From assembly GCF_056746865.1 (NCBI RefSeq), contig NZ_CM163382.1: a stretch of DNA of 64,000 bases. One strand, written 5' to 3'. A model generated the notes under the pieces. It searched no databases and had not been told where the DNA came from. It was given only the letters and a program-made list of their open reading frames with translations. A program made the translations under genes and the position numbers. How positions within the stretch are numbered: the stretch's first letter is position 1; each line of letters starts with the position of its first letter. This document shows positions 7,827 to 44,328 of this stretch, piece by piece.

Positions 7827-8070
7827 GCTGACCTCATTTCCCCTTAACGCCGGGGTAGCGGAACAAAAACCTGCTGCATAGTTATTAAAGTTGAACCCTG
7901 CCGTCATGTTCTTACGCCTCGGGCTGGCTACTTAACCCCTGACCACTGCCGGGTAACTCGAAGTATTTCCCTGCGTTCTGTGGGGCGGGGTGGGTTGGTA
8001 TGTTGTTAATGTAACAAGAGTTACCTTTCGAGTCAATACAATGTTGCAAAAGGTACATTTGAGGGCATAA

Positions 8071-8095
8071 AAAACCCGCAATGAATGCGGGTTCT
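8071..8095 (-). terminator. Intrinsic terminator downstream of repressor gene
   Basis: Hairpin ACCCGCA-ttca-TGCGGGT followed by T-run on the minus strand, immediately 3' of cI stop. Confidence 0.5.
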
Positions 8096-8098
8096 GAC

Positions 8099-8872
8099 TC
8101 AGTCTAAGTATTGATGTATTTGTGAAACTTTACCTTTAATGGTGTAACCACCATTCAGTTCGATGGGTTTGTAAAGCGGATTCAGTGACAACAAATAGAT
8201 GTTTGGTCCGTCAATCGCAACTTTTTTTAGTGTTACGTTTGGCGTTCCTTCCAATTGGATTAAGATTATTTTTCCCACCAGTTCTCTAATGTTACTTGAG
8301 CATGGTGTGATCAGCACGGTAGATCCGTCGGGGATGGTTGGGAGGCCGTTAGAGTTTGTCATCGCATCTCCCTCAACATGCAATAAAAAAGAGTTTTCAG
8401 CGGTTTTTGTCATGACATCAACCCAGTTATTAATACCAGGAATCTTGGTTACTGGACAACTCATATCCCAATAACCAGCCTGTTCCCACGTTAAAACGGG
8501 CAACCGGGCGATGTTGTCACTAATGTAAGGGTACTGATTCAGACGCAGATCATCGGTTTTATCGTGACAGTCCTTTCCATAAAGAATCCATTCAGGAGAT
8601 TTGGAAAGCAATTTTGACAGTAGATACAAATTCTCACCGTCAGGTTTTGAAGAGCCATTTTCCCATTTTGTTACGGATACACGAGATATGCCGATTGCTT
8701 TCGCAACCTGCTGTTGGGTTAATCCAACGTCTTTTCGACGATTCCGAATACGTTCGCTGATAGTGTTTTTCATGTAACCAATGTTACTACCAAGTGATGT
8801 TGCTATGGTTGACATTGTTATGTAACTATTGTTACCCTTCTGCTCGAAATAACAGGAGAGTTTTATGTTCAA
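8099..8872 (-). CDS. cI: CI-like phage repressor (XRE HTH plus S24 LexA-like peptidase domain)
   Basis: HTH region GLTQQQVAKAIGISRVSVTKWENG; C-terminal S24-like region; divergent from cro-like gene; likely true start at ATG 8815 (MSTIATSLG). Confidence 0.85.
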   Translation of the reverse strand: MNIKLSCYFEQKGNNSYITMSTIATSLGSNIGYMKNTISERIRNRRKDVGLTQQQVAKAIGISRVSVTKWENGSSKPDGENLYLLSKLLSKSPEWILYGKDCHDKTDDLRLNQYPYISDNIARLPVLTWEQAGYWDMSCPVTKIPGINNWVDVMTKTAENSFLLHVEGDAMTNSNGLPTIPDGSTVLITPCSSNIRELVGKIILIQLEGTPNVTLKKVAIDGPNIYLLSLNPLYKPIELNGGYTIKGKVSQIHQYLD

Positions 8873-9080
8873 AGATGATGTTCTGCGCTATTTCAAAAAA
8901 AAGCGACTAGTAGCTGAGGCTCTTGGAATTTCACATGTGGCTGTTGTGCGGTGGAAAGCAGTTATTCCCAAACTTCGCGCAATGGAACTGGATGAAATTA
9001 CTAACGGTGAATTGAAATACAACCCAGAACTTTACAAGAAGCAGGATAGCACCTCGAACGAAGGAAAGAATGATTCATGA
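8865..9080 (+). CDS. cro: Cro-like HTH regulator
   Basis: 71 aa, LVAEALGISHVAVVRWK HTH; strong RBS AGGAGAG; divergent from cI. Confidence 0.7.
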   Translation: MFKDDVLRYFKKKRLVAEALGISHVAVVRWKAVIPKLRAMELDEITNGELKYNPELYKKQDSTSNEGKNDS

Positions 9081-9502
9081 AAATCAAGCATGAACACATC
9101 CGCATGGCGATGAATGTCTGGGCGCATCCGGACGGCGAAAAAGTACCGGCTGCGAAAATTACCAAAGCGTATTTCGAGCTGGGAATGACGTTCCCGGAAC
9201 TGTATGACGACAGCCATCCGGAAGCCCTGGCCCGTAATACCCAGAAAATTTTCCGTTGGCTGGATAAAGACACCCCTGATGCTGTTGAAAAAATGCAGGC
9301 TCTGTTACCGGCGATCGAAAAGGCGATGCCGCCTTTGCTGGTGGCCCGTATGCGCAGCCACAGTTCTGAATATTACCGTGAGATCGTCGAACGGAGGGAT
9401 CGGCTGGTGAAGGATGTCGATGATTTTGTTGCGTCAGCGGTTGTTTTGTATGACCAGATGAATCGCGGCGGCCCGGCAGGGAATGCTGTGGTGATGCACT
9501 AA
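9077..9502 (+). CDS. YdaT-like protein (CII-position regulator/toxin family)
   Basis: 141 aa starting MKIKHEHI, as Rac YdaT; ATGA overlap with cro stop. Confidence 0.55.
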   Translation: MKIKHEHIRMAMNVWAHPDGEKVPAAKITKAYFELGMTFPELYDDSHPEALARNTQKIFRWLDKDTPDAVEKMQALLPAIEKAMPPLLVARMRSHSSEYYREIVERRDRLVKDVDDFVASAVVLYDQMNRGGPAGNAVVMH

Positions 9503-9509
9503 AAGCACG

Positions 9510-10487
9510 GTGTTCGGGGGTTTTATGAGCAGCAAGCTTCATGGTCTTGTCTGGGAAGGGTGCGCCTTCACCGGCATGATCTTATCCAGGGTGGCGGTTA
9601 TGGCCCGTCTTGCAGACTACAGCAATGACGAGGGCGTGTCATGGCCTGCCATTGAAACTATCCGGCGTCAGATCGGTGCAAGAAGTGAATCCACAGTGAA
9701 ATCGGCTATTGCAGAACTGGCGAAAGAGGGCTGGCTGACGAAGGAAGAGCGTAAGGTCGGTGGGCGTAATGTAAGCAATATCTATCGGCTTAATGTGGAA
9801 AAACTCGAAGCAGCTGCGGCGGCGGCGCGTGAGTCATATAAACCGAAAAGAAAAATTAGCCCGGCAAAAAATGACCCGTTAACAGTTGACCCGTCAAATA
9901 TTGACCCCTCAACGGTTGACCCGTCAAATTTTGATGGATCAACTGTTGATAAAAAACTGCCGATTAGGGGGGCGATGATTGACCCCGATCCGTCAGTATT
10001 AAAACCTGATCCGTCAGATAAAAGATCTTCTTGTCCGGACGCTTCGCAACCGGACCCGCAGACGGCTGAACAGGATTTTTTAACCCGACACCCTGACGCG
10101 GTTGTGTTCAGTGCGAAAAAACGCCAGTGGGGAAGTCAGGAAGATTTGGTGTGCGCACAGTGGATCTGGGGACGAATCGTGAGTCTTTACGAGCAGGCGG
10201 CCAGCGATGATGGCGAGATCACTAGACCGAAAGAACCCAACTGGACAGCATGGGCCAATGACGTTCGCACAATGCGGATGCTGGATGGCAGAACTCACAG
10301 ACAAATTTGTGAAATGTTTGGGCGTCTCCAGCGGGATTCGTTCTGGGTAAAAAACATCATGAGTCCGGCAAAACTCCGGGAAAAATGGGATGAACTGGTT
10401 ATCCGCCTGGGGCGTTCGCCTGCGCAGCGTTGCGTGAATCACATTTCTGAACCGGACACTGAAATACCGCCGGGATTCAGGGGGTGA
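9510..10487 (+). CDS. Replication initiation protein (lambda O functional analogue, YdaU-like)
   Basis: N-terminal winged-helix-like region; internal DNA iterons; immediately upstream of DnaC-like loader; start may be ATG 9525. Confidence 0.6.
   Translation: MFGGFMSSKLHGLVWEGCAFTGMILSRVAVMARLADYSNDEGVSWPAIETIRRQIGARSESTVKSAIAELAKEGWLTKEERKVGGRNVSNIYRLNVEKLEAAAAAARESYKPKRKISPAKNDPLTVDPSNIDPSTVDPSNFDGSTVDKKLPIRGAMIDPDPSVLKPDPSDKRSSCPDASQPDPQTAEQDFLTRHPDAVVFSAKKRQWGSQEDLVCAQWIWGRIVSLYEQAASDDGEITRPKEPNWTAWANDVRTMRMLDGRTHRQICEMFGRLQRDSFWVKNIMSPAKLREKWDELVIRLGRSPAQRCVNHISEPDTEIPPGFRG
9880..10020. repeat. Iteron cluster (candidate phage origin) inside the replication initiator gene
   Basis: Repeated TTGACCCGTCAAAT / TTGACCCCTCAACGG / TGACCCCGATCCGTCAG units, encoding DPSN/DPST peptide repeats. 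Confidence 0.5.
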
Positions 10488-10493
10488 CGTGTC

Positions 10494-11240
10494 ATGAAAA
10501 ACATTGCGGCAGTTGGGGTTCTTGAACGTATTCGCAGACTTGCACCACAGGGGTCGGTTCCACCGTACCGGACGGTGGAGGAGTGGCGGGAATGGCAACT
10601 TGCTGAAGGACGAAAACGCAGCGAGGAGATTAACCGCCAGAATCGCCAGTTGCGGGTGGAAAAAATCCTGAATCGTTCGGGCATCCAGCCTCTGCACAGC
10701 AAATGCTCGTTTGCAAATTATCAGGTGCAGAACGACGGGCAAAAATACGCGCTGAGCCAGGCCAAATCCATAGCTGACGAACTGATGACCGGGTGCACGA
10801 ATTTTGTGTTCAGCGGTAAAACCGGCACCGGGAAAAATCACCTTGCAGCGGCGATGGGCAACCGGCTGATGGTGAAGGGGCGCAGCGTGATTATCGTCAC
10901 CGTGTCTGACGTCATGAGCGTGTTGCATGACAGCTACGACAACGGCAAATCCGGGGAAAAATTTTTACAGGAGCTTTGCGGGGTTGATTTGCTGGTCCTG
11001 GATGAAATAGGCGTTCAGCGGGAGACGAAAAACGAGCAGGTGGTATTGCACCAGATAATTGATCGCCGGACAGCATCACTGTGCAGTGTCGGGATGTTAA
11101 CAAACCTGAATCATGCCGCAATGAGTACGCTTCTTGGTGAGAGGATTATGGACCGCATGACCATGAACGGTGGTCGATGGGTGACGTTTAACTGGGATAG
11201 CTGGCGTCCAAATGTCAGCAATATGAGGGTTGTGAAGTAA
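10494..11240 (+). CDS. DnaC-like helicase loader (IstB-like AAA+ ATPase)
   Basis: Walker A GKTGTGKNHLAAA and Walker B LLVLDEIG. Confidence 0.85.
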   Translation: MKNIAAVGVLERIRRLAPQGSVPPYRTVEEWREWQLAEGRKRSEEINRQNRQLRVEKILNRSGIQPLHSKCSFANYQVQNDGQKYALSQAKSIADELMTGCTNFVFSGKTGTGKNHLAAAMGNRLMVKGRSVIIVTVSDVMSVLHDSYDNGKSGEKFLQELCGVDLLVLDEIGVQRETKNEQVVLHQIIDRRTASLCSVGMLTNLNHAAMSTLLGERIMDRMTMNGGRWVTFNWDSWRPNVSNMRVVK

Positions 11241-11261
11241 TTTTGTCCGGAGGAAATTTTA

Positions 11262-12032
11262 ATGGAAACCGTATCTGACGCACTGAAAGCACTGAAAAAA
11301 GCCTCTTCACATGTGGTGGCAGCTCGCCTTGGAATCAGTCGTGAAGAGGCTGTCAACGAGCTGTGGGAACTCAAAAGAAATGGCGTCGTTGATAAAACTG
11401 GTCACACCTGGTTTCTGGCTGGCGAAGGTGAATCCCGGGTAACCGAAGAGCGGCCAGTAAAATCTGAAGCACAGGATATGCTGACCGGGGAGGTCGAACA
11501 AAAAGTTACCGCAGACATGATGATTGAGTTTATCGGTCAGGATGGGGCTAAAACGTGTGAGGAACTGGCGGGTAAGTTCGGTGTCAGTACTCGCAAGGTT
11601 GCTTCCACGCTGGCGGTGGTAACCGCAACGGGGCGGCTGGCACGCGTTAATCAGAACGGTAAATTTCGTTACTGCATGCCGGGCGATAATTTACCAGCAG
11701 AGCCGAAAGCCGCGCTGGTAACGGAAAGTGATGGTAAGGCCTTTCCTCAGCCAGCAGGTGCTGCGTTACCAGGCCGGGAAGCCGCAACACAGGAAGAAAT
11801 TAAAACAGAAACTGTGGCGGACATTGTGCAGTCGTTGCCATCGTTTACCGAAACGCAAGCAGATGAGCTGATTTTTCCGTCCCTGCGCAGGGCAAACCTG
11901 GCGCTGCGCAGGGCGAAAAGTGATGTTCAGAAGTGGGAGCGAGTCTGCGCCGCGCTGCGGGAGCTGAACAAGCACCGGGATATTGTTCGACAGATTACTG
12001 ATTCTTCCCGCCGTGTTGTATCGGAAAAGTGA
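11262..12032 (+). CDS. Hypothetical protein with two winged-helix-like repeats
   Basis: 256 aa; internal repeats AARLGISREEAVNELWELKRNGVV and LAGKFGVSTRKVASTLAVVTATGRLARV. Confidence 0.5.
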   Translation: METVSDALKALKKASSHVVAARLGISREEAVNELWELKRNGVVDKTGHTWFLAGEGESRVTEERPVKSEAQDMLTGEVEQKVTADMMIEFIGQDGAKTCEELAGKFGVSTRKVASTLAVVTATGRLARVNQNGKFRYCMPGDNLPAEPKAALVTESDGKAFPQPAGAALPGREAATQEEIKTETVADIVQSLPSFTETQADELIFPSLRRANLALRRAKSDVQKWERVCAALRELNKHRDIVRQITDSSRRVVSEK

Positions 12033-12047
12033 TTGCCGGAGGCGCTT

Positions 12048-12470
12048 ATGGCAAAAGTATTTACACAAGAAGAGCGGGAAAAAATTAAAGGGCAGGTTGT
12101 TGAACTTGTACGTCTGAGCGGTCGCGAGACGTTGCGGCAACTGGAAGCCAAGACAGGTGCGACAAGATATCTGATGAGTGTTCTCGCCAGAGAGCTGGTT
12201 GCCAGTGGCGATGTATACAACTCTGGTTACGGGTTATTCCCGTCTGAACAGGCGCGTAAGGACTGGCAAAACGCCCGCAAAAAACTCTCAAGGGCAAATC
12301 TGAAGAAACCATCTGTGGTTGATCCTGACCTTATCTGGCCATTACCAGACGGCGAAATACGCCGCTACGACAGGCGTCAAAACATAATCTGTAGCGAGTG
12401 CCGGAAGAGCGAAGCTATGCAGCGTGTACTGGCTTTCTATCAGGGTAATTTTCAGAAGGTGCTGTTGTGA
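12048..12470 (+). CDS. Hypothetical protein, putative wHTH
   Basis: ATG at 12048 with GGAGG RBS (track ORF starts at an upstream TTG, 12033). Confidence 0.5.
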   Translation: MAKVFTQEEREKIKGQVVELVRLSGRETLRQLEAKTGATRYLMSVLARELVASGDVYNSGYGLFPSEQARKDWQNARKKLSRANLKKPSVVDPDLIWPLPDGEIRRYDRRQNIICSECRKSEAMQRVLAFYQGNFQKVLL

Positions 12471-27886: not shown

Positions 27887-29786
27887 TATGATGAGTGCTG
27901 TCACAACAGCATTACAGCCCCTGATAAGGGCATTGCCGGTGACGCCAGTTGAATGGGCTGATCAAAATTATTATCTGCCTAAAGAATCTTCATATGGTGA
28001 GGGAGAATGGAAAACGCTGCCGTTCCAGATCGCCATCATGAACAGTATGGGGAATGATCAGATCCGCACTGTTAATCTGATTAAATCTGCCCGTGTTGGC
28101 TATACAAAGATGTTGCTGGGAGTCGCCGGGTATTTTATTGAGCATAAATCCCGAAACAGTCTGCTTTTTCAGCCCACGGATTCTGCCGCTGAAGATTTTA
28201 TGAAGTCTCACGTGGAGGCGACGATTCGGGACGTGCCATGCCTGAAAGATCTTTCCCCGTGGCTGGGTCGTAAACATCGTGACAATACTCTCACGCTGAA
28301 ACGCTTTTCATCGGGCGTGGGCTTCTGGTGCCTGGGCGGGGCTGCCGCTAAAAACTACCGTGAAAAATCCGTGGATGTGGTCTGTTATGACGAGCTTTCC
28401 TCGTTCGAACCGGATGTTGAAAAAGAGGGTTCGCCAACCCTGCTGGGGGATAAACGTATTGAGGGCTCTGTATGGCCCAAATCCATTCGCGGCTCGACGC
28501 CTAAAATCAAAGGCTCCTGCCAGATCGAAAAAGCCGCTAACGAGTCGGCACACTTCATGCGTTTTTATGTGCCCTGTCCGCACTGTGGGGAGGAGCAGTA
28601 TCTGAAATTTGGCGATGATGCCTCGCCTTTCGGTCTTAAGTGGGAGAAGAATAAGCCAGAAAGTGTTTTCTACCTTTGTGAGCATCATGGCTGTGTGATC
28701 CATCAGTCTGAGCTTGACCAGAGTAACGGGCGGTGGATCTGTGAAAACACGGGCATGTGGACCCGTGACGGCCTGACGTTTTTCAGCGCTGCGGGTAATG
28801 AAATTCCGCCGCCGCGCTCCATCACGTTCCATATCTGGACGGCGTACAGTCCGTTCACCACCTGGGTACAGATAGTCTATGACTGGCTGGATGCACTGAA
28901 AGATCCCAACGGCCTGAAAACCTTTGTGAACACCACGCTGGGCGAGACCTGGGAAGAGGCTGTGGGCGAAAAACTCGATCACCAGGTACTGATGGATAAG
29001 GTTGTGCGTTACACGGCGGCGGTGCCTGCCCGGGTGGTTTATCTGACGGCGGGCATTGACTCGCAGCGAAACCGTTTTGAGATGTATGTCTGGGGATGGG
29101 CACCGGGAGAGGAAGCTTTTCTGGTGGATAAAATCATCATTATGGGCCGTCCCGATGAGGAAGAGACGCTGTTACGTGTGGATGCGGCGATCAACAAAAA
29201 ATACTGCCATGCAGACGGAACCGAAATGACCATTTCCCGTGTCTGCTGGGACACCGGGGGGATCGATGGTGAAATTGTCTATCAGAGGTCAAAAAAACAC
29301 GGTGTTTTCCGGGTGCTGCCGGTAAAAGGCGCATCTGTCTATGGCAAGCCGGTGATCACCATGCCGAAAACCCGCAATCAGCGGGGCGTGTATCTGTGTG
29401 AAGTGGGGACGGACACCGCAAAAGAAATTCTCTATGCCCGTATGAAAGCCGAGCCCACGCCTGCGGATGAAGCCACGTCGTATGCCATCCGTTTTCCTGA
29501 TGATCCGGAGATTTTTTCGCAGACAGAGGCGCAGCAACTGGTCGCGGAAGAGCTTGTGGAGAAGTGGGAAAAAGGAAAGATGCGTCTGCTGTGGGATAAC
29601 AAAAAGCGGCGTAACGAAGCGCTGGACTGCCTGGTGTATGCCTACGCGGCATTACGTGTGTCCGTGCAACGCTGGCAGCTTGATCTGGCTGTACTGGCAA
29701 AATCCCGGGAAGAAGAGACGACCCGGCCAACCCTTAAAGAACTGGCAGCGAAGCTGTCCGGAGGAGTGAATGGTTACAGTCGCTGA
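27858..29786 (+). CDS. A: Terminase large subunit (gpA-like)
   Basis: Extensive similarity to lambda gpA (VEWADQNYYLPKESSYGEGEWKTLPFQ, Walker A-like region, CPHCGEEQYLKFGD). Confidence 0.92.
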   Translation: MNISEQQLNNMMSAVTTALQPLIRALPVTPVEWADQNYYLPKESSYGEGEWKTLPFQIAIMNSMGNDQIRTVNLIKSARVGYTKMLLGVAGYFIEHKSRNSLLFQPTDSAAEDFMKSHVEATIRDVPCLKDLSPWLGRKHRDNTLTLKRFSSGVGFWCLGGAAAKNYREKSVDVVCYDELSSFEPDVEKEGSPTLLGDKRIEGSVWPKSIRGSTPKIKGSCQIEKAANESAHFMRFYVPCPHCGEEQYLKFGDDASPFGLKWEKNKPESVFYLCEHHGCVIHQSELDQSNGRWICENTGMWTRDGLTFFSAAGNEIPPPRSITFHIWTAYSPFTTWVQIVYDWLDALKDPNGLKTFVNTTLGETWEEAVGEKLDHQVLMDKVVRYTAAVPARVVYLTAGIDSQRNRFEMYVWGWAPGEEAFLVDKIIIMGRPDEEETLLRVDAAINKKYCHADGTEMTISRVCWDTGGIDGEIVYQRSKKHGVFRVLPVKGASVYGKPVITMPKTRNQRGVYLCEVGTDTAKEILYARMKAEPTPADEATSYAIRFPDDPEIFSQTEAQQLVAEELVEKWEKGKMRLLWDNKKRRNEALDCLVYAYAALRVSVQRWQLDLAVLAKSREEETTRPTLKELAAKLSGGVNGYSR

Positions 29787-42698: not shown

Positions 42699-43282
42699 TG
42701 GCATTCAGAATGAGTGAACAACCACGGACCATAAAAATTTATAATCTGTTGTCCGGAACTAATGAATTTATTGGTGAAGGTGATGCATATATTCCGCCTC
42801 ATACAGGTCTGCCAGCAAACAGTACCGATATTGCACCGCCAGATATTCCGGCTGGCTTCGTGGCTGTTTTCAATAGTGATGAGTCATCGTGGCATCTCGT
42901 TGAAGACCATCGGGGTAAAACGGTTTATGACGTAGCGTCAGGGGACGAGTTATTTATTTCTGAACTCGGTCCGTTACCGGAAAATGTTACCTGGTTATCG
43001 CCGGAAGGGGAGTTTCAGAAGTGGAACGGCACAGCCTGGGTGAAGGATACGGAAGCAGAAAAACTGTTCCGGATCCGGGAGGCGGAAGAAACAAAAAACA
43101 ACCTGATGCAGGTAGCCAGTGAGCATATTGCGCCGCTTCAGGATGCTGCAGATCTGGAAATTGCAACGGAGGAAGAAACCTCATTGCTGGAAGCCTGGAA
43201 AAAGTATCGGGTGTTGCTGAACCGTGTTGATACATCAACTGCACCTGATATTGAGTGGCCTACGAACCCTGTCAGGGAGTAA
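42698..43282 (+). CDS. tfa: Tail fibre assembly protein Tfa
   Basis: 194 aa, [18 protein letters not shown]... as lambda Tfa. Confidence 0.9.
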
Positions 43283-44061: not shown

Positions 44062-44328
44062 ATGCTGCCGCAGCATAGCGATATTGAAATAGCCTGGTAT
44101 GCTTCGATACAGCAGGAGCCGAATGGCTGGAAGACCGTCACCACACAGTTCTACATCCAGGAATTCAGTGAGTATATTGCGCCACTGCAGGATGCTGTAG
44201 ATCTGGAAATCGCAACGGAGGAAGAAAGATCGTTGCTGGAGGCATGGAATAAATATCGGGTGTTGTTGAATCGTGTTGATACATCAACTGCACCTGATAT
44301 TGAGTGGCCGACTTCACCTGCAGAGTAA
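44062..44328 (+). pseudogene. Duplicate 3' fragment of tail fibre assembly gene (tfa remnant)
   Basis: C-terminal 53 aa nearly identical to Tfa C-terminus; DNA 44174..44310 repeats 43124..43260. Confidence 0.6.

Follow-up and report, generated by a model that had tools for sequence, protein, structure and literature searches.

How does a lambdoid prophage mark the site at which its own replication begins, and can such a mark lie within the gene of the initiator protein? The question is raised by a stretch of 64,000 nucleotides from contig NZ_CM163382.1 (NCBI RefSeq assembly GCF_056746865.1), referred to here as the window. The open reading frame (ORF) list and the Pfam matches of the window place an array of 15-bp units in the early-right operon of a lambdoid prophage, inside the replication initiator gene (9525-10487). 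A first-pass annotation had proposed the repeats as a candidate phage origin. The array and a second cluster of motifs downstream of it are conserved as DNA, independently of the encoded protein. The DNA at 9825-10034 is almost certainly a functional element, and approximately this region is very probably the replication origin of the prophage, embedded in its own initiator gene. The term origin stays an inference, because binding by the initiator and replication itself lie beyond sequence evidence.

The 15-bp array and its conservation as DNA

The array consists of five in-phase 15-bp units (9870-9944) inside the initiator ORF. Tandem Repeats Finder placed about 5 copies of a period-15 repeat at 9851-9934 and also read the same array with period 30; an independent repeat search returned the same 15-bp spacing. 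Unit 1 begins at 9870 (AAT GAC CCG TTA ACA, encoding NDPLT) and is imperfect, with TTA for TCA. It is followed by unit 2 at 9885 (GTT GAC CCG TCA AAT, VDPSN), unit 3 at 9900 (ATT GAC CCC TCA ACG, IDPST), unit 4 at 9915 (GTT GAC CCG TCA AAT, VDPSN) and unit 5 at 9930 (TTT GAT GGA TCA ACT, FDGST). A degenerate sixth unit begins at 9945 (GTT GAT AAA AAA CTG). The first four units are forward iterons on the plus strand, arranged head to tail (9870-9929), with the core TGAC-CC(G/C)-T(C/T)A-A and C-rich centres. The fifth and terminal iteron, TTTGATGGATCAACT (9930-9944), lies on the minus strand as an inverted copy of the forward units and has a G-rich centre.

The first-pass annotation had counted at least four tandem copies of a 14-15 bp unit in an ORF at 9510-10487 and had read them as encoding a DPSN/DPST peptide repeat. 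The count agrees with the five phased units, of which the fifth is an inverted copy of the others. The VDPSN and IDPST units are present as described, but they are not merely a peptide repeat, since the element is one of DNA. The ORF and its neighbour were also placed correctly. Its start is better assigned to the ATG at 9525 than to the GTG at 9510, as the homologue alignment shows this ATG to be shared with all homologues, and it is probably the true gene start.

The array is unique in the window. Its core TTGANNNNTCAA (TTGA-N4-TCAA) occurs 6 times in the 64 kb as opposed to 1.44 times expected, a count reached in none of 100 shuffles. Four of the six matches, by themselves more than the number expected window-wide, lie at 9886, 9901, 9916 and 9931 (span 9886-9942) with a spacing of exactly 15 bp. 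Nowhere else on either strand of the window is there a run of at least three phased units. The remaining two matches, at 43227 and 44276, were considered as related sites and rejected, as they are part of an unrelated 158-nt direct repeat. The copies of this direct repeat (43106-43263 and 44155-44312) are 88% identical and 1,049 bp apart, and they are apparently unrelated to the origin.

Each unit is dyad-symmetric around the core T-TGA-N4-TCA-A, and both orientations of the core are in use. This symmetry fits a binding site for a protein dimer, and a peptide gives no reason for two-fold symmetric DNA. An imperfect 33-nt inverted repeat (9881-9913 and 9915-9947) runs through the array. The terminal inverted unit is kept in relatives of the window allele that have two, three or four forward units. 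The forward-then-inverted layout is also found in the SfIV group and in phiP27; the Klebsiella types differ.

Three mutually independent lines of evidence, from homologues, recoding and sequence diversity, all point to the DNA as the conserved entity. The homologue set was drawn from phage records and viral contigs with an N-terminal domain 52-100% identical to that of the window initiator, and it includes SfIV, SKA5, phiNP, YeP1, LLS, phiP27, Klebsiella prophages and IMG/VR contigs. The set yielded 63 units in 14 diverged lineages, and in all 14 of these homologues 3-8 units of 15 bp occupy the same position in the gene. Information content is highest at unit nucleotides 3-5 (T, G, A) and at nucleotides 10-13 (T, C, A, A), positions that straddle the codon boundaries. 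Codon 1 of the unit encodes ten amino acids, yet its third base is T in 60 of the 63 units, and the third base of codon 4 is A in 62 of 63. Serine is encoded by TCA at 60 of 89 positions inside the arrays versus 32 of 259 (12%) in the parts of these genes that encode folded protein (P=2e-22). Both orientations of the core occur, such as TTGACCCCTCAA and TTGAGGGGTCAA, which are translated into DPS and EGS peptides, respectively. One lineage has replaced the serines by prolines or leucines and retained TTGA-SSSS-YYAA. For the second line of evidence, the array peptide of each lineage was recoded 20,000 times with the codon usage of the gene family. The observed total motif match was reached by none of the 20,000 recodings in 13 of the 14 lineages, and with P=0.0006 in the remaining one.

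The third line of evidence is the diversity at codon positions, compared over 37 distinct close relatives of the allele in the window. At third positions it amounts to 0.221 in the N-terminal domain (ORF nucleotides 1-300) and falls to 0.049 in the pre-array tract (301-345), 0.089 in the array (346-420) and 0.068 in the spacer (421-450), reaching its lowest value of 0.013 in the second cluster (451-510). First- and second-position diversity in the N-terminal domain is about 0.02, which is the normal pattern of purifying selection. Across nucleotides 301-510, variability at the first and second positions is no lower (0.03-0.11); for variable third positions, P=1.4e-8 by Fisher test. A recent sweep was rejected as the cause of the low third-position diversity, because it would reduce diversity at all three positions. 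The pattern of third-position constraint therefore places the constrained DNA at about 9825-10034. The element is located at 9880-10020, where the first-pass annotation had put it, but the constrained DNA is wider and includes the second cluster.

The sequences on either side of the array within this region have distinct compositions. To the left lies an A-rich tract, AAACCGAAAAGAAAAATTAGCCCGGCAAAAAAT (9829-9869), which contains the second-lowest-GC 30-mer of the gene. Its GC content is 0.27 over 9829-9858, its AT skew reaches 0.67 and its third-position diversity is low. To the right, a candidate unwinding tract, GTTGATAAAAAACTG (9926-9958), overlaps the inverted unit and the degenerate sixth unit. 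The 30-mer at 9926-9955 has a GC content of 0.23, the lowest among the genes at 9077-12100, and in 9 of 14 homologues this region also contains the gene's lowest-GC 30-mer (binomial P=8e-4). A G-rich spacer separates the AT-rich tract from the second conserved cluster.

The second cluster (9978-10034, plus strand) consists of ATTGACCCC followed by GATCCGTCAG at 9987 and 10008, 21 bp apart. GATC sites are present at 9937, 9987, 10008 and 10024, and the last three of them lie in this cluster. Such a GATC triplet within 45 bp is one of just two in the window; the other is at 28028-28064. All 14 diverged homologues carry two or three copies of GATCCGTCA, always with a GAT codon, and all 14 keep two or three GATC sites at the position of the second cluster; the window itself has two copies of GATCCGTCA. 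A TAAAATCAAAACATGATCCGTCAGATAAAA-like stretch around the cluster has the lowest or second-lowest GC content of the gene in most lineages. DnaA-box-like sequences that match at 8 of 9 positions flank the array at 9794-9802 and 9944-9952 (minus strand), TTTTCCACA and TTATCAACA, and the window contains 21 such matches versus 14 expected.

The initiator protein and its modular inheritance

The initiator gene encodes an 'O-like' protein of 320 amino acids on the plus strand. Its HTH_36 domain (PF13730) scores 27.8 bits against a Pfam gathering cut-off of 25, and the protein belongs to PHROG 391, 'replication initiation O-like' (E=2e-115), a name that serves as a functional label. With a Pfam limit of E<=0.01, the only matches were HTH_36 and, below threshold, DnaD_N, with none to Phage_rep_O, the lambda O family. 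By sequence family, the initiator is thus outside the lambda O family. Its N-terminal domain is 52-70% identical to those of SfIV, phiP27 and other HTH_36 phage initiators.

An AlphaFold2 model built on a 34-sequence alignment predicts a folded N-terminal domain (residues 1-105) of helices and a beta wing, as in a winged helix. Residues 108-174 have a predicted local distance difference test (pLDDT) score below 50 and form a predicted disordered linker, and the folded C-terminal domain (residues 178-295) is followed by a disordered tail. The low-pLDDT stretch corresponds to the DNA at 9846-10046, which is the constrained DNA. Because the linker is predicted to be disordered, the origin-like DNA appears to sit where the protein tolerates nearly any sequence. 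A Foldseek comparison of the model returned generic dimeric winged-helix DNA binders (the ArsR, MarR, PadR and Fur families and TubR), all of them weak (E>=3e-3), and no specific match to an initiator.

The 21 residues at the C-terminus, AQRCVNHISEPDTEIPPGFRG (encoded at 10422-10484, plus strand), resemble the extreme C-terminus of E. coli DnaT. This DnaT-like tail alone was matched when solved structures were searched with the initiator sequence. The matches are to PDB chains 2ru8_A, 6aep_A and 9zbt_D, with E values of about 0.01-0.03; the tail also matches positions 159-179 of 179 in the NCBIfam DnaT model. A tail ending in ..IPPGFRG also closes Rac YdaU and most homologues. Its likeness to DnaT probably accounts for the legacy annotation 'primosomal protein I'. 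The role of the DnaT tail is not stated in the 2026 preprimosome paper. The dnaT and dnaC genes of E. coli form one operon (PMC13377028). Since the tail is DnaT-like and dnaT shares an operon with dnaC, there is a hint that the dnaT-dnaC pair and the phage initiator-loader pairs are possibly related.

The initiator genes are modular. Homologues are alike up to a joint and then split into at least three types of C-terminal domain. The joint in the window is CCGGACGCTTCGCAACCGGAC (10035-10060), where C-terminal domains attach to the block of N-terminal domain and origin. The sequence CCGGA(C/A)GCTTCGCAACCGGAC is found just 3' of the origin region, at 10035-10060 in the window, at 2500-2540 in locus L009 and in loci L020, L021 and L054-L062. 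The joint is an apparent recombination hotspot for the exchange of C-terminal domains. The window-type N-terminal domain and array are joined to at least two C-terminal domain types, and the SfIV-type N-terminal domain and array to two. The window's C-terminal domain is 87-91% identical in nucleotide sequence to that of mEp460-like initiators, which have an unrelated N-terminal domain; the C-terminal half shows 86.6% nucleotide identity to phages with a different N-terminal domain. The N-terminal domain and the array are thus inherited as a block, and the C-terminal domain is exchangeable. Block inheritance with a swappable recruiting domain fits what the lambdoid origin model predicts.

Initiators with other N-terminal domains also contain repeats in the middle of the gene. 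The mEp460-type initiator of the E. coli AREA_497 prophage has five copies of GGTCAAAATG mid-gene, about 23 bp apart (L009 2343-2455), followed by an AT-rich run of 2.8 copies of ACAGAGAATACA. The K-12 Rac gene ydaU has four copies of AAGCAGATGTTCAA spaced by 33, 33 and 12 bp (L011 2972-3120), followed by an AT-rich run of 3.3 copies of ATAAAG. An active origin, oriJ, has been reported for Rac (PMC3945230). The AAGCAGATGTTCAA repeats of ydaU are a candidate for the oriJ sequence, though the mapped position of oriJ was not found.

The proposed origin and rival explanations

A mechanism can be proposed by analogy with lambda O and its origin. Winged-helix dimers of the initiator N-terminal domain would bind the 15-bp units, in which TGA and TCA half-sites alternate every 7-8 bp. 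A period of 15 bp would place neighbouring sites on roughly opposite faces of the helix, and hence lead to a tightly packed nucleoprotein complex. This complex, together with rightward transcription from the cro promoter, would destabilize the AT-rich tract at 9926-9958, and the A/T-rich tract with GATC sites at 9993-10030 might be opened as well. The C-terminal domain and the DnaT-like tail would then bring in host DnaB by way of the phage DnaC-like loader (10494-11240). More speculatively, firing may be linked to Dam methylation and SeqA through the GATC sites.

Several findings weigh against an origin of this kind. An AT-rich element, which the first-pass annotation had suggested looking for, adjoins the array and includes the lowest-GC 30-mer of the operon, but it is a short tract of about 30 bp with a moderate AT content (GC 0.23) that is equalled by about 2% of the window's 30-mers. 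The DnaA-box-like matches are imperfect, and the one at 9944 overlies the sixth unit, which is variable in the homologues that were read. Adjacent winged-helix dimers would be crowded on 12-bp sites that recur every 15 bp. The array can also form a long hairpin, and a structural role is inseparable from site recognition. The loader step is not universal, as several homologous phages have no DnaC-like gene beside the initiator. The P values given above are optimistic, because the motif itself was used to pick out the units and the lineages are related to one another. No published account of this type of iteron, of its core TGACCCGTCA or of an origin in this family was found in the literature searches, though an earlier prediction is possible; neither the SfIV genome paper nor the paper on the Stx (Shiga toxin) phage 'Eru' units (PMC8951638) mentions an origin or iterons.

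The opening step could take another form. Head-to-tail sites closed by an inverted site have the potential to form a hairpin or cruciform, and the tail of the protein is DnaT-like; for these reasons, binding of the initiator might extrude a hairpin for primosome assembly or helicase loading. The tail would then connect the initiator to the DnaT/DnaC/DnaB restart machinery of the host, with firing gated at the GATC pairs by Dam and SeqA. We give this version a small chance of being correct.

The most serious rival to a replication origin is that the sites control replication rather than start it. They could serve autoregulation, copy number control, handcuffing or the exclusion of related phages, with strand opening occurring elsewhere. 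The evidence at the DNA level establishes that the DNA is functional and does not tell which function it has, and the putative unwinding tract is a weak one. An array in which an inverted unit ends a run of direct repeats also resembles the control sites of iteron plasmids. However, no other phased motif cluster exists in the window that could act as the true origin. The position of the array and its modular inheritance fit the plan of the lambda origin, and initiators with other types of N-terminal domain have the same layout of mid-gene repeats and AT-rich sequence. A purely controlling role appears unlikely.

A second rival holds that secondary structure is the selected feature. This could be an mRNA hairpin that affects translation or stability of the initiator message, or a hairpin or cruciform of single-stranded DNA that acts as a loading signal for the primosome or helicase. 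The 33-nt imperfect inverted repeat is of this nature, and the single-stranded DNA fold has an energy of -16.9 kcal/mol (z=-4.8). RNA folds of the array in 11 lineages have z values from -2.4 to -6.3, and the terminal inverted unit is retained at any copy number. However, tandem units with dyad symmetry have hairpin potential automatically. The TGA and TCA half-sites are conserved in every unit, and the central four bases vary freely without compensating changes. No Rfam family was matched, the best hit being a chance microRNA model with 21 bits where 58 are required. Equal constraint is seen in the second cluster and the pre-array tract, which lie outside the hairpin. Moreover, a role for a DNA hairpin would be a variant of the origin model and not an alternative to it. 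Secondary structure as the sole object of selection is quite improbable.

The third possibility is that only the peptide matters, and that a flexible (V/I/S)D(P/A)S(N/K) linker has grown by replication slippage so that the DNA likeness reflects recent duplication. The number of copies does vary from 3 to 5 among close relatives, and the stretch is predicted to be disordered. Amino acids nevertheless vary where bases are kept, as seen in the TCA serines, the T-ending first codon and the two orientations of the core; diversity at synonymous sites is as much as 17-fold lower than in the flanking domain, and the motif is practically never regenerated by recoding. This very improbable reading was rejected, as the synonymous-site data contradict it. 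A gene that overlaps in a different frame or on the opposite strand, which would also constrain synonymous sites, was rejected as barely conceivable, as the ORF list has no other ORF of at least 50 amino acids across 9825-10034 and the TGA on the top strand and the TCA (TGA on the bottom strand) of every unit create stops in alternative frames.

Known systems and the prophage locus

The lambda origin has four iterons of roughly 19 bp. Unlike in lambda, the units in the window are 15 bp long and in direct contact, the terminal unit is inverted, and a second, GATC-bearing cluster follows the array, the AT-rich tract being short. The initiator is of the HTH_36 type and not of the lambda O family, and its partner is an AAA+ loader of the DnaC type in place of lambda P. 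Like the lambda origin in gene O, the proposed origin has tandem symmetric repeats and a candidate AT-rich tract in the middle of an initiator gene, in a rightward early operon after cro and cII. As in lambda, a type-specific N-terminal domain and origin are joined to an exchangeable C-terminal domain. The iterons and AT-rich tract in the middle of lambda gene O bind O to form the O-some (PMC7466680). Among lambda relatives, including Stx-phage variants with six iterons, the number of iterons varies and adds or removes amino acids of the initiator (PMC7466680). The first-pass annotation had likened the locus to lambda, with iterons inside the initiator gene, and this comparison is supported by the DNA constraint, the dyad-symmetric units, the disordered linker and the gene order, with an initiator from outside the lambda O family.

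The true homologues of the window initiator are the HTH_36 initiators annotated 'O-like' or 'primosomal protein I' in SfII, SfIV, phiP27, phiNP, YeP1 and Klebsiella prophages. Every member examined has a 15-bp TGA-N4-TCA array and a GATCCGTCA cluster in the same place. Members differ in the flanks of the unit (TT in the window type versus CT in the SfIV type) and in copy number (3-8). Their C-terminal domains and downstream genes also vary, and a methylase or YfdN replaces DnaC in many of them. Modules of YdaT and HTH_36 are listed among the 'Eru' replication units of Stx phages (PMC8951638).

A DNA adenine methylase gene lies directly downstream of the initiator in 733R5, phiNP and LLS, and one gene further in SKA5 and YeP1. 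The GATC pairs in the origin region are kept in all six of the phages 733R5, SKA5, phiNP, SfIV, YeP1 and LLS (L002-L007). These observations suggest a possible link of the phage Dam to origin control.

The module ydaS-ydaT-ydaU-ydaV of Rac resembles that of the window in gene order, in the YdaT-family gene upstream, in the YdaV-like loader, in the ..IPPGFRG tail and in the presence of mid-gene repeats. Unlike the window initiator, YdaU has a DUF1376 N-terminal domain that is unrelated to HTH_36, and its repeats are different. A further point of comparison is provided by the iteron plasmids R6K, pPS10 and pSC101, which have a winged-helix Rep, tandem iterons, an AT-rich tract and, in some origins, GATC/Dam sites. 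Plasmid iterons are usually about 17-22 bp long and located outside the rep gene, and Rep binds them as a monomer. By Pfam, the plasmid Rep proteins have no sequence-family link to this initiator.

The finding extends the lambda paradigm; it is not a new principle and is unsurprising to a specialist. In serotype-converting Shigella phages, and in some replication units of Stx phages, relatives of the initiator drive replication. The location of the putative origin would give a defined target with which to study or block prophage replication, the process that sets the dosage of toxin genes after induction, and it would provide a compact replicon for vectors. The array is also a clean natural case in which a DNA signal dictates the sequence of a disordered linker, as one site in two orientations gives either DPS or EGS peptides.

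A possible natural replicon of this type is NZ_CP148542.1 (L093), a circular E. coli 'plasmid' of 15,977 bp that contains only prophage early-right, Q, esterase and lysis genes. The module described here is the sole recognizable replication function of the record, which lacks a plasmid replicon type and could be either a natural replicon similar to lambda-dv or an assembly artefact. Both the initiator and ydaT are frameshifted in the record, and for this reason it is a weak hint of autonomous replication and not a proof.

The gene order in the window, with CI on the minus strand followed by cro, ydaT, the initiator and the loader, fits a rightward early operon as in lambda. The CI-type repressor (8099-8872, minus strand), with HTH_3 (Pfam E=4e-17) and Peptidase_S24 (E=2.5e-16) domains, is divergent from the early-right operon that holds the proposed origin. 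The first gene of this operon, which runs rightward through the initiator, encodes a small helix-turn-helix protein (8865-9080, plus strand) that is Cro-like by its position, and Cro is annotated at the same position in homologous loci. A YdaT-family gene (9077-9502, plus strand) occupies the position of cII directly upstream of the initiator. It matches Pfam YdaT_toxin (E=2.8e-10; 40.9 bits against a cut-off of 21), and its RefSeq label is 'toxin YdaT family protein'. A promoter and terminator scan of 8000-11400 found nothing within the operon, with no consensus promoter inside 8900-11400.

Directly downstream of the initiator, in agreement with the first-pass annotation, lies a DnaC/IstB-like helicase loader gene (10494-11240, plus strand), an orthologue of ydaV, and the next gene after it encodes a DUF1627 protein. 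The loader scores 506 bits with NCBIfam NF009043 (cut-off 389), matches IstB_IS21 (E=7e-19) and is 80% identical to Rac YdaV. Its score with the DnaC equivalog model is 299 bits, which is below the cut-off of 357, and it therefore appears to be a paralogue of DnaC and not DnaC itself.

Of 5,426 complete E. coli genomes, about 1,340 carry the initiator allele, and the 1.2 kb that surround the array, with at least 99% identity; O157:H7 and O104:H4 strains are among them. These 1.2 kb match part of the chromosome of E. coli 2013C-4991 at 100% identity, and there the prophage adjoins yccA and has int, exo, dicB, tRNAs in the Q region and a NanS-type esterase. The immunity region upstream of ydaT in 2013C-4991 (L092, 9893-10694) differs from that of the window (8099-9080). 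An identical replication region combined with a different immunity region indicates that the window carries another mosaic of the same prophage family.

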